This document shows positions 24,176 to 28,369 of a DNA stretch of 64,000 bases, piece after piece. The position numbers and the translations under genes are program-made. The number at the start of each line of letters is the position of its first letter. Positions within the stretch are counted from its first letter, which is position 1. The notes under the pieces were generated by a model. That model worked only from the letters and a program-made list of their open reading frames with translations. It was not told where the DNA came from and did no database searches. Origin of the DNA: Promethearchaeota archaeon (GTDB lineage Archaea > Asgardarchaeota > Lokiarchaeia > Sigyniarchaeales > SOKP01); assembly GCA_019058445.1 (NCBI GenBank), contig JAHPZA010000006.1, positions 416,001-480,000 of the forward strand, in the 5' to 3' direction.

Positions 24176-25402
24176 ATGATTGAGATTTCCTTAGAACAAG
24201 CTCAACGTTTTATTCTTGAGAAACAAGGATTATTAACTACAAAACCAGCAAAATCGGTTTTAGAAGTTGCTAGAAAGATTCATAATATTCAAATTGATAC
24301 TATCTCAGTTGTCGCAAGATCACATGATTTAACAATATACAATAGATTTGAGAATTACACTGAGAAGGAAATCTGGGATAATTTAAGGAGAAAAGAGTTA
24401 TTCGAGTATTATTCACATGGACTCTGTTTAATACCTATAGAAGATTATCCATTCTATAAATTCTGTATGGATGATTATCGTGACAGAGAAAAAAACTCAA
24501 GGTGGGAGAAATGGTTAACAGTCAATCAAAAGATTGTAGATTTTGTTTTGAATAGGGTGAAAAAGGAAGGCCCATTGTCAAGTAAAGATTTCAAAGTTCC
24601 TGAAGAAAGAAAATCTAAAGGTTGGTTTGAATGGAAGGAAGAAAAGCGAGCGTTAGAATATCTATTCTATCGTGGTGATTTATTGATTAACCATCGAGAA
24701 GGTTTCCAAAAATACTATGATATACCAGAGAGAGTTCTCCCCCTAAATATTAGTCATGAACCAATGACCATTAAGGATGCACCTGATTATCTATTAAATA
24801 CTACTTTATCATCATTAGGTATTTGTGATTATGAGGAAATTAAGAGCTATATCAGAAGTCGAACTTTAAAATTAATATGGAATAATAAACCTAGTTTAAT
24901 TACTGAATACTTGGAAGAAAAGGTAAAGGATGATACACTTATAAAAGTCAATGTTCAGGGCATTGATAGAACACAATTTATTAAATCTACAGATAGCAAG
25001 AAGATTGAAACGGTTAAATCACTAGAGTCTGCAGAAGCAAAATTGATTAATCCTTTTGATAACGTTGCTCGAGACAGAAATTTACTAAGAAAATTCTGGA
25101 ATTTTAATTACAAACTAGAAGCTTATACTCCTGCTCCAGATAGAATTTTTGGTTATTATTTGATGCCGATTCTAATCGATCATCAAATCATAGGTCGTCT
25201 TGAACCTAAGGCTCATAGGAAAGAGTCGAGACTAGAAATAAAATCAATATTTTTTGAGAACTGGTTTAAACCAAGTAAAAACTTCTATGAAAAATTAGCT
25301 AAAGGTCTTTGGAAGTTTGCTACATTTCATAATTGCACTGAAATTACTTTGAATGATAAAATAAATAAAGATATTAAGAATACTTTAACATCTGTTCTCT
25401 AA
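24176..25402 (+). CDS. YcaQ/AlkZ-family (HTH_42) crosslink-repair DNA glycosylase
   Basis: IQIDTISVVARSH (QxD), PFDN, YKLEAYTP..R.FGYY. Confidence 0.85.
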   Translation: MIEISLEQAQRFILEKQGLLTTKPAKSVLEVARKIHNIQIDTISVVARSHDLTIYNRFENYTEKEIWDNLRRKELFEYYSHGLCLIPIEDYPFYKFCMDDYRDREKNSRWEKWLTVNQKIVDFVLNRVKKEGPLSSKDFKVPEERKSKGWFEWKEEKRALEYLFYRGDLLINHREGFQKYYDIPERVLPLNISHEPMTIKDAPDYLLNTTLSSLGICDYEEIKSYIRSRTLKLIWNNKPSLITEYLEEKVKDDTLIKVNVQGIDRTQFIKSTDSKKIETVKSLESAEAKLINPFDNVARDRNLLRKFWNFNYKLEAYTPAPDRIFGYYLMPILIDHQIIGRLEPKAHRKESRLEIKSIFFENWFKPSKNFYEKLAKGLWKFATFHNCTEITLNDKINKDIKNTLTSVL

Positions 25403-25546
25403 TGTTAATTGTTTAAGAGATGATTAGATGAAGTATGTAAAAATGAAGGATTTGTATTCATTTGGGAAACAGTTCAGTATTGGGATAGATGAGCAAATTA
25501 AGAAGCTCGAGTTAAATAGGAGTATAATTGCAGAAATAAATCCATA

Positions 25547-25621
25547 ATGGAAGTTACCGCAAAAAATCAATGTGAAATAATCTATACTCTGCCATCTTTC
25601 TTTAAACAACTTAATTTATAA
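25547..25621 (+). pseudogene. Displaced duplicate of the 3' end of the PIN-TPR gene
   Basis: Encodes EVTAKNQCEIIYTLPSFFKQLNL* versus EITAINQCEIIYTLPSFFKQLNL* at 23815-23889. Confidence 0.85.
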
Positions 25622-25734
25622 GAATTCAGTTAATTTCAGATAAAATTAGATTTAACATTAGGGGTATTCTATCTTAAAACCTTGAGTTAAAAAGGAATAA
25701 AAGTTAAAAATTAATATTTTTTTATAAATTGTAC

Positions 25735-26036
25735 TCACTCTTTTCGCAAGTTTTTATCTCGTTGACTAACTTGATGACTATGAACTGCGCAGCTTATGCA
25801 ATAATACTTTTTATTCTGTCCGCTCATGATAATCGTCCCAGCTTTTTTAAGTTCCCCATACATTCTTCCATCAACGAGCGATGTTCGACGAGTAACTGCT
25901 TTAGCTTTGCTTTTTACAGTGAATACGAAATGTTAAACACTCTTGCAACAAATCTTCCACACTTACTACACTGAACTTTGCCATAATTTCCCTTGCTGCT
26001 GCCAGTTTTACCACCAGATTTTCTTTTCTTAGGCAT
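25735..26036 (-). CDS. rps26e: 30S ribosomal protein S26e (eS26), split by an intron: join(26036..25942, 25912..25735), 90 aa
   Basis: Spliced product MPKKRKSGGKTGSSKGNYGKVQCSKCGRFVAR/SKAKAVTRRTSLVDGRMYGELKKAGTIIMSGQNKKYYCISCAVHSHQVSQRDKNLRKE has the CxxC and YCISCAVH signatures; GGAGGT SD upstream. Confidence 0.92.
25913..25941 (-). other. 29-nt bulge-helix-bulge intron in rps26e
   Basis: Central helix UGCA/UGUA, bulges AGA and AAA, inner GUG/CAC stem; the insert carries an in-frame TAA and shifts the frame, and its removal restores the ORF. Confidence 0.8.
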
Positions 26037-26215
26037 AGCTCCAACCTCCTTTTCTGTAATTCTCATCTATTCTTCTAAACTCTAAGAATTTGAATTCTAC
26101 AAACCTTAAATAATTTGTTCTTATAGATTAAGTCTTTTCACAAAAATTACATGAAGTAAAAAATTCTTTAATCATAAAGAGAATTACATAATTAATGAAA
26201 TTCTGAGGATTAAAA

Positions 26216-27598
26216 ATGAGAAGAATCGAATTCCCCGATGGCTTTACCTGGGGGGCTGCAACTTCAAGTTTTCAAATTGAAGGAGCATGGAATGAGGATG
26301 GGAAAGGTGAAAGTATATGGGATTTAGCGTCACATACTCCAGGAATAATAAAAAACAATGATACCGCAGATATTGCATGCGACCATTATCATCAATACAA
26401 AGAGGACGTTCAGATAATGAAAAAAATGGGACTAAAAGCGTATAGATTTTCAATAGCTTGGCCCCGTATTTTTCCTAGGGGGCAAGGGGAAATAAATCCT
26501 AAAGGGGTCCAATTCTACGATAACTTGATAAATGAACTGCTAGCAAACGGAATAGAACCTTTCACAGATCTTTATCATTGGGACTTACCCCTAGCCTTGA
26601 ATAGATTGGGTGGATGGGAAAACCGTGAAGTTGGTGATGCCTATGTTGAGTATGCCACTTTTATATTCAATCATTATGGCGATCGGGTTAAAAATTGGAT
26701 AACATTTAACGAGCCGATGATCTTTGCATTATATTATTATATTCTTGGGCTCTATGGGAAAAAAGGCAACTTTTCAGGAGGTATTTGTGCCTCTCATTTA
26801 GTTAATGTTGCCCACGCAAAAGCAATAAAAGCTTATCGATCATGTGAATATCCCGATGGAAAAATCGGTATCACATTAAATCCATTCCCTCTTTATCCAA
26901 TAACTGAATCTGCGTTAGATAAGGAAGCAGTTACGGTGGTTGATGGATTAGTAAATAGATGGTTTTTAGATCCCGTTTTTAAAGCTTCCTATCCTCCTGA
27001 TACATTTGAATTGCTAAGTAAGACCATCGATTTATCTTTAATTACGGAAAATGATTTAAAATTACTAAAGGAAAATCCAATGGATTTTTTAGGGATCAAT
27101 TTATATTCCTGCTGGCGAATTGGAGCTAGAAAGAAAGAAGATCTTAACAATTTATTTAAGTTAATCGGCAAATTAGCAACACCCCTTAAAAATAAAAAAA
27201 ATATTGAAAGTTCAGAAACAGGGTGGGAGGTTTATCCAGAGGGATTATTTGATATTCTCAAACGAATAGATTATGATTACAATCACCCTCTAATTTATAT
27301 CACAGAAAATGGAATGGCATGTAAGGATGATATAATAGTTGGAAGAATTGTACAAGATGATGATCGATTAAGCTATCTTAAGCGTTATATTGAAAAAGCA
27401 AGTAAAGCTATGAACGATGGAGTAAATCTGAAAGGATATTTTGTCTGGTCTTTAATGGACAATTTTGAGATGTTCGAGGGGTATGAGAAAAAATTTGGGT
27501 TAATTAAAATTGACTATGAAACCCAAGAGAGAATCTGGAAAAAAAGCGCATTATGGTATCGTGATATGATAAAAGCGAATAGTTTTCCTTTTTCTTAA
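26216..27598 (+). CDS. GH1 beta-glucosidase
   Basis: FTWGAATSSFQIEG, TFNEP and ITENG catalytic motifs, WSLMDNFE. Confidence 0.93.
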   Translation: MRRIEFPDGFTWGAATSSFQIEGAWNEDGKGESIWDLASHTPGIIKNNDTADIACDHYHQYKEDVQIMKKMGLKAYRFSIAWPRIFPRGQGEINPKGVQFYDNLINELLANGIEPFTDLYHWDLPLALNRLGGWENREVGDAYVEYATFIFNHYGDRVKNWITFNEPMIFALYYYILGLYGKKGNFSGGICASHLVNVAHAKAIKAYRSCEYPDGKIGITLNPFPLYPITESALDKEAVTVVDGLVNRWFLDPVFKASYPPDTFELLSKTIDLSLITENDLKLLKENPMDFLGINLYSCWRIGARKKEDLNNLFKLIGKLATPLKNKKNIESSETGWEVYPEGLFDILKRIDYDYNHPLIYITENGMACKDDIIVGRIVQDDDRLSYLKRYIEKASKAMNDGVNLKGYFVWSLMDNFEMFEGYEKKFGLIKIDYETQERIWKKSALWYRDMIKANSFPFS

Positions 27599-27640
27599 TT
27601 TAAGTCAAACTAACGAAAAAAAAATATTTTTATAAATTTT

Positions 27641-28369
27641 TTAAATATGCTCTTCATCAGAATTCTGATTATTAAGGACCTTAAAAGTAAATACTATTCT
27701 TTGAGCAACTGTGATGAAGAGCGCTATAGTGTAAATAATTATTGCTATTAAAAATACAGGGGTAACTGGTATTCCAGTTATAAATGGAATAAATATTGTA
27801 ATAGGAGCACCTAAGAAAAAAAGAGTCAAGAAATAAAACCACATTTCAAAAAGCAAGGCGAATAGTAAAAACAAAATTCTTTCAGCACGCTCCATGAATC
27901 CTACTCCCTTCATATTTACTCCCTCATTTTCTGCTCTTGAACGTGTATAAGAGATCATAATTACTAAAAATAATACAAGATATCCTAATATATAATTTAC
28001 TAGTCCCCCATAAATTAGTCCTAATATAAGTAAAGCATCTGAAATTCGATCTAAATTTGAATCAAGAAAGGCCCCCGCTTGAGTTTCTTTATCCGTTCTT
28101 CTTGCTACCTCTCCATCAAACAAATCAAACGCACCCGCTAATCCCATCAAAAAAGGTACTATCCACGCCAGCCACATTGAAAAGTAAACCCATCCTAGAG
28201 CTATTAAAATTGCAACTGTCAATGAAATTGCAAATCCTATAAAGGTAATTTCATTAGGACTTACCTTATGCTTAATTAAGAATTCCACAGGACGGTCAAT
28301 ATATCTACTATACCTATGTAAAATCTCCTTTTGGCGTATTCTTTTATTTGTGCCTGCTTTCTCATTCAA
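27641..28369 (-). CDS. CDP-alcohol phosphatidyltransferase (archaetidylinositol-phosphate synthase-like)
   Basis: DLFDGEVARR...GAFLDSNLDRISD motif; SYTRSRAE; GFMERAER. Confidence 0.88.
   Translation of the reverse strand: MNEKAGTNKRIRQKEILHRYSRYIDRPVEFLIKHKVSPNEITFIGFAISLTVAILIALGWVYFSMWLAWIVPFLMGLAGAFDLFDGEVARRTDKETQAGAFLDSNLDRISDALLILGLIYGGLVNYILGYLVLFLVIMISYTRSRAENEGVNMKGVGFMERAERILFLLFALLFEMWFYFLTLFFLGAPITIFIPFITGIPVTPVFLIAIIIYTIALFITVAQRIVFTFKVLNNQNSDEEHI

Follow-up and report, generated by a model that had tools for sequence, protein, structure and literature searches.

The gene for ribosomal protein eS26 (rps26e) in the window, that is, in the whole 64,000-nucleotide stretch of Asgard archaeal DNA that was analysed, is very probably a split gene, interrupted by one 29-nt archaeal bulge-helix-bulge (BHB) intron that the tRNA-splicing endonuclease EndA would cut out and the ligase RtcB would close up, to yield a 90-residue eS26 (a reading to which we give a probability of about 0.9). 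Intron splicing of protein-coding RNA is usually held to be a eukaryotic hallmark. If so, an Asgard archaeon cannot express an essential ribosomal protein gene, of which it has one copy, without BHB splicing, and environmental RNA holds the spliced product.

The interrupted gene and its junction

The features of the locus are as follows (all on the minus strand of the window).
25735..26036, minus: rps26e locus
25942..26036, minus: rps26e exon 1; ATG, codons 1-31 and the first two nucleotides of codon 32 (...CGRFVA-AG); aligns with intronless homologues
25913..25941, minus: putative BHB intron, 29 nt; third nucleotide of the 5' bulge, inner hairpin, 3' strand of the central helix and first two nucleotides of the 3' bulge; contains TAA
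25735..25912, minus: rps26e exon 2; last nucleotide of codon 32, codons 33-90, TGA stop
26044..26049, minus: Shine-Dalgarno-like GGAGGT, 7 nt 5' of the ATG; conserved in relatives
25906..25952, minus: whole BHB motif; outer, central and inner helices and two bulges

The reading frame opens with the ATG at 26036 and runs through MPKKRKSGG...CSKCGRFVAR to the insert (25941-25913), which shifts the frame by +2 and has an in-frame TAA at its end; 3' of the insert a second frame continues with SKAKAVTRR...YYCISCAVH... to the TGA at 25735. Unspliced, the first frame specifies a 40-residue stub (or 50 residues from an in-frame ATG upstream, at 26064-26066). Subtraction of 25913-25941 leaves a 273-nt ORF whose 90-residue product matches the Pfam Ribosomal_S26e profile (PF01283) over residues 1-89 with 55 bits, above the gathering score; the unspliced locus scores 27 bits, from exon 2 alone. 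The spliced product has all four zinc-ribbon cysteines (CSKC and CISC), shares 72-94% identity with S26e proteins annotated in Asgard archaea, and reads FVAR/SKAKAV at its junction, as do intronless genes of the same genus. In four of these (genomes G001, G005, G006 and G009) the sequence CGRFVARSKAKAVTRR across the predicted junction is the uninterrupted reading, and the alignment gap is exactly 29 nt. A preliminary description of this locus had proposed a TAA-containing, frame-shifting insert of 29 nt whose removal restores an intact 90-residue eS26, and this holds to the base. It had also surmised that standard annotation misses such genes, as it does: gene callers split rps26e into pieces of 40-50 and 43-76 residues. 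Fragmentation of this kind makes essential genes seem absent, and distorts completeness estimates of Asgard metagenome-assembled genomes (MAGs) as well as pangenome counts.

Across the junction, an outer helix of 5 bp joins UUUGU (25952-25948) to A-G-CAAA (25911-25906; the G, 25910, is bulged), and a central 4-bp helix joins UGCA (25947-25944) to UGUA (25918-25915). The two bulges, AGA (25943-25941) and AAA (25914-25912), are of 3 nt each and lie on opposite strands, each 3' of its helix strand; beyond them an inner helix, GUG/CAC, belongs to a hairpin spanning 25919-25940; in this genome the hairpin consists of two 3-bp stems separated by an internal loop and is weaker than in relatives. All elements of the pairing scheme originally proposed are present as described. 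The motif is of the canonical 3-4-3 class. If each bulge is cut 3' of its second nucleotide, the segment lost is precisely 25913-25941; one A leaves the exact cut positions ambiguous, with no effect on the product.

Pairing at least this good is found at 8.3e-5 of all combinations of position with length 29 in this genome (31% GC), so that coincidence of a BHB with the only frame-restoring borders is unlikely; with these borders fixed, the chance of such pairing is about 2e-4. Folding energy adds no support, since the BHB fold is not the preferred one: in ViennaRNA the minimum free energy (MFE) of the region is -9.8 kcal/mol (z-score 0.19), and that of the BHB conformer is about 0 kcal/mol. 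The nearest-neighbour model favours, by some 10 kcal/mol, a different fold in which the same A-run is paired. The region 25400-26400 has no match in Rfam.

The proposed pathway would run as follows. The gene would be transcribed with the intron inside; in the pre-mRNA, UUUGU-UGCA of exon 1 would pair with UGUA of the intron and AGCAAA of exon 2, giving the 4-bp helix with its two flanking 3-nt bulges above a short intron hairpin. EndA would then cut after the second nucleotide of each bulge and RtcB would ligate the exons to GCA AG/A AGC, so that full-length zinc-ribbon eS26 should be translatable only after exon joining. The intron would presumably be released, probably as a circle.

Distribution and conservation of the insert

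Outside the window, the same 29-nt insert occupies the same site in at least eight DNA records, with six distinct sequences among them. They are MAGs and metagenome contigs of several sources: G007, G008, L098, L116, L274/L275, L276 and L277. (The five last-named entries were added by pattern and protein searches and come from independent metagenomes. The DNA pattern applied to metagenome and genome contigs is a loose one, with at least 233 loci, nearly all of them chance matches, and 4 with S26e among the matches listed.) This recurrence means that the insert is not an assembly artefact, an explanation that the preliminary description had entertained. The relatives are deposited under the names Candidatus Hermodarchaeota, Promethearchaeota and Lokiarchaeota, which fits the Asgard lineage presumed at the outset.

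Within the same order, S26e is present in 140 of 154 species-representative genomes, among which the split signature is confined to three (G000, the genome of the window, G007 and G008), all of one genus. The same genus includes the four uninterrupted genes already mentioned, as well as three genomes (G002, G003 and G004) with no S26e match by HMM or DNA, in which rps26e is probably unassembled. A single gain within the genus probably accounts for the intron. Partial S26e matches in G140 and G152 were considered as introns and rejected; they are contig ends. No other copy of the rps26e intron was found in G000.

Among carriers, dN/dS is about 0.03-0.1 in both exons (dS ranges from 0.25 to saturation and is mostly at least 0.45), and both halves of the gene have therefore been under protein-level selection since the intron arrived. 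This bears on the alternative that rps26e is a pseudogene, or the victim of a recent inactivating insertion, 29 nt having broken the gene of an organism that either lacks eS26 or has it on an unassembled copy. That the unspliced frame ends after 40 residues is what such an account expects, and the 92.6% completeness of the genome leaves a little room for a second copy. On the other hand, the insert is kept at one site across lineages whose synonymous divergence extends from about 0.25 to saturation, the low dN/dS takes in the part downstream of the break, the Shine-Dalgarno sequence and start are intact, and there is RNA that lacks exactly the insert (described below). Nor did a Pfam profile search of the genome (10 contigs) find a second S26e locus, the intact further copy envisaged in the preliminary description. 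Decay of the gene is thus scarcely credible, as the same description had argued from undamaged exons and an undamaged GGAGGT.

Returning to the BHB intron, 93% of the cells of the structural model are paired in 7 distinct carrier sequences (96% in the central helix, 100% in the outer helix and 87.5% in the inner hairpin, which has 3-8 bp), and displacing the 3' partners by 1-3 columns reduces the figure for the whole model to 37-54%. Compensatory changes are seen at two inner-helix pairs, a number that 121 of 500 shuffles match and that is not significant. The expectation of a same-site insertion with a covarying BHB in relatives is accordingly borne out as to the site and a conserved core, but not as to covariation. 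Since energy and covariation gave no support, the structural case rests on position, conservation and the RNA data.

Bulges, central helix and outer helix are essentially invariant among carriers, and this includes third positions of codons on the exon side: the BHB-forming exon nucleotides show no change except for two in L274/L275. In intronless genes, these codons differ by synonymous changes (TTT/TTC, GTT/GTA/GTC, GCT/GCC/GCG and AGA/CGA/AGG/CGT). Third-position invariance of this kind would be expected under selection for a recognition helix that lies partly in the exons. The two exceptions (L274:1577-1641 and L275:174-238) are a change of GCA to CCA, which replaces Ala with Pro and turns a central-helix G-U pair into a C-U mismatch, and a change of AGC to AGT in the outer helix; they constitute a natural test of how much mismatch splicing tolerates. 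The preliminary description suggested that the intron may couple eS26 output to RNA processing; the intron itself seems to be an insertion that is tolerated, and not an established regulator.

Spliced RNA and the presumed enzymes of splicing

No RNA run was listed with the exact sequence of this strain; about 5% of words were shared, from relatives. Six metatranscriptome runs shared few words with the locus, and four of these, from three studies, were examined (X17, X18, X21 and X22; contig sequences were rebuilt from difference tables against the window). In each of the four, a single contig (209-265 nt) spans the site and lacks exactly 29 nt, at 25912/25913; none has a contig that retains the 29 nt. 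(One of the contigs, X18r3, extends to 26072.) Two contigs are 98.0-98.5% identical to G007, which is DNA with the intron, and one is 95.8% identical to G000. The contigs are most simply read as mRNAs from organisms that have the intron, spliced at the nucleotides predicted. RNA without 25913-25941, which the preliminary description had looked to as a check, thus exists as four contigs from three studies, in relatives 96-98.5% identical to carriers and not in this strain, which presumably splices in the same manner.

RNA contigs cannot be tied to a genome, and they might be thought to come from coexisting intronless strains, with the intron merely polymorphic in presence and splicing not demonstrated. 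This is very improbable, because all four contigs fall inside the carrier clade in maximum-likelihood exon trees (bootstrap 99 with G007) and all four have the carrier-specific exon flanks, GCAAG/AAGCAAAGC (GCAAG/AAGC). All intronless DNA that was recovered, in contrast, is at least 19% divergent and has the flanks GCT/GCC/GCG...AGT. The closest full-length intronless S26e in a collection of 5.8 billion proteins has 94% protein identity, and these closest intronless genes are 75-81% identical as DNA and stand outside the carrier clade. The spliced junction occurs as S26e DNA in none of the 233 pattern loci, among the matches listed, and an origin from intronless strains would require several independent exact losses of the intron in near-identical strains.

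The same contigs bear on ribosomal recoding, in which the 29 nt would stay in the mRNA, to be skipped by translational bypassing or crossed by frameshifting. Phage T4 gene 60 is the precedent, its gap being bypassed in translation while remaining in the mRNA, and the likeness is real in so far as the ORF of rps26e is likewise intact but for a short gap that includes a stop codon and a hairpin. The rps26e RNA contigs, unlike gene 60 mRNA, are already without the gap, no take-off and landing codons are matched in the correct frame, no slippery heptamer precedes the TAA, and changes within the insert keep base pairs, not codons. Recoding is on these grounds extremely improbable.

Excision of the BHB intron by EndA and RtcB, the preferred reading, is consistent with the gene content of the genome. 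An EndA gene (G000:C9:770313-770921) encodes a 202-residue ORF with N-terminal and catalytic domains (PF01974 and PF02778), and contig C1 encodes an RtcB ligase (PF01139, 574 bits). Asgard EndA is reported to be an (alpha-beta)2 enzyme whose L1 loop confers broad specificity (PMC5829648). Splicing by EndA and a ligase, as proposed in the preliminary description, is in this sense upheld at the level of encoded genes and of spliced RNA in relatives; that these are the enzymes at work is what gene presence and the cut rule point to.

Because the assignment comes from these two considerations, and because MFE prediction yields another fold than the BHB, one may ask whether some other endonuclease and ligase excise the intron at the RNA level, the BHB being incidental. 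That too is unlikely, and clearly so. The observed junction is the one that the EndA rule predicts for a 3-4-3 motif, selection holds the BHB core constant with its exon side included, and 29 nt is too short for a self-splicing intron; the broad-specificity (alpha-beta)2 type of enzyme reported for Asgard archaea (PMC5829648) also speaks for EndA.

Asgard tRNA genes are unusually rich in introns (PMC11291895; bioRxiv 10.64898/2026.10.13.758758). ARAGORN reports only 23 tRNA genes in the 4.6 Mb of G000, of which it scores 19 as intron-bearing; probably many of the tRNA genes in this genome are too interrupted for recognition.

A second intron site and known systems

In relatives, rps26e has a second site of interruption (site B; that of the window is site A), where a BHB-like insert of 29-30 nt lies within the second CxxC, between its codons for Ser and Cys (CIS/C).
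L098:1523-1587: site B intron
L277:335-399: site B intron
L278:1697-1761: site B intron
L279:572-636: site B intron
L281:1697-1762: site B intron

Site B alone is interrupted in L278-L280 (29 nt) and L281-L283 (30 nt), and both sites in L098 and L277, so that rps26e of close relatives may have site A, site B, both or neither. Cuts placed by the BHB rule (AUAA/G and AG/GY) restore the conserved CISC in every sequence. The central helix pairs GCAU with RUGC, 94% of positions are paired, and the hairpin differs wholesale between the two versions; an outer helix is lacking, which makes this a relaxed motif. Intron-free and intron-bearing alleles in one genus, together with site B, offer a clean natural system for studying the origin of introns, the adaptation of coding sequence to its role as a strand of the recognition helix, and the question whether splicing serves control.

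A canonical BHB insert of 32 nt also interrupts a Prismane/CO-dehydrogenase gene about 19 kb before the window (G000:C6:396802-396833, minus strand; locus L273). The two exons cover Pfam profile positions 3-457 and 458-512 and meet exactly at the junction, so that rps26e would not be the only spliced mRNA of this genome. In genome-wide BHB scans of G000, a mirror-image control gave the same raw counts as the genome whatever the length (about 600 or about 1300 hits for each length, according to stringency), and random positions passed an open-frame filter equally often; the prevalence of mRNA introns is therefore not estimable by motif scan. The genome-wide search that the preliminary description had suggested has in this way contributed one further mRNA intron, but no counts above control. 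The scan missed rps26e itself because the inner helix is short in G000. Most of its top candidates were rejected as ordinary gene boundaries, and a 25-nt candidate in the CDP-alcohol phosphatidyltransferase gene of the window (28129-28153) is false, the gene being continuous.

It is on balance probable, though with appreciable room for doubt, that EndA/RtcB splicing of mRNA is routine and evolutionarily fluid in Asgard archaea and no rarity of the cbf5 sort, with mini-introns of about 29-32 nt that come and go at several positions even of one 270-nt ribosomal protein gene and that are present in many other essential genes of the same genome as well. If that is true, the closest prokaryotic relatives of eukaryotes already need post-transcriptional exon joining to make ribosomes.

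The searchable literature documents a coding-sequence BHB intron only in the cbf5 pre-mRNA of Crenarchaeota (Watanabe 2002; Yoshinari 2006; Yokobori 2009, PMC2738675), which agrees with the rarity, exemplified by cbf5, that the preliminary description had stated. A 2025 paper on EndA substrates cites cbf5 as the sole mRNA case (PMC12397907), and recent Asgard work covers tRNA introns only (PMC11291895; bioRxiv 10.64898/2026.10.13.758758). The mechanism proposed for rps26e is that of the cbf5 intron: both are short, BHB-defined coding-sequence introns (that of cbf5 is removed by the tRNA-splicing endonuclease and a ligase), and both are patchy among close relatives, with gain and loss; the EndA of cbf5 hosts is hetero-oligomeric and of broad specificity, as that of Asgard archaea is reported to be. 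What is new is the ribosomal-protein host gene and the phylum (Asgard as against Desulfurococcales and Sulfolobales); the RNA support for eS26 consists of metatranscriptome contigs in place of RT-PCR or enzyme assays. The same 270-nt gene, unlike cbf5, moreover has a second intron site in relatives.

With archaeal tRNA and rRNA BHB introns and processing stems rps26e shares the 3-4-3 motif, the cut rule and the presumed enzymes. It differs in that the substrate is an mRNA, whose cut sites must keep the reading frame, and in that the central and outer helices each draw one strand from coding sequence, which is constrained at the level of RNA and of protein. A more distant parallel is the unconventional splicing of HAC1/XBP1 mRNA in eukaryotes by IRE1 and tRNA ligase or RtcB. 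There too a short intron of a cytoplasmic mRNA is excised by protein only, under the guidance of RNA structure, and a tRNA-type ligase and a change of frame lead to a functional protein, but IRE1 is unrelated to EndA, reads twin stem-loops instead of a BHB, and is regulated by stress.

Start codons and gene neighbourhood vary among relatives. The rps26e start is ATG in G000 (26034-26036) and TTG in G006; L032, L033, L034, L035, L037, L098 and L116 have ATT at the Met codon of the conserved MPKKR, 7 nt after GGAGGT, and G001, G005, G008 and G009 lack an in-frame ATG upstream; this suggests AUU initiation. In relatives the gene order is RNA methyltransferase, CDP-alcohol phosphatidyltransferase, rps26e. 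In G000 (window 24176-28369 examined), the CDP-alcohol phosphatidyltransferase gene (27662-28369, minus strand) is separated from rps26e by a gene for a GH1 beta-glucosidase (26216-27598, plus strand), and a gene for an AlkZ-like DNA glycosylase (24176-25402) follows rps26e.
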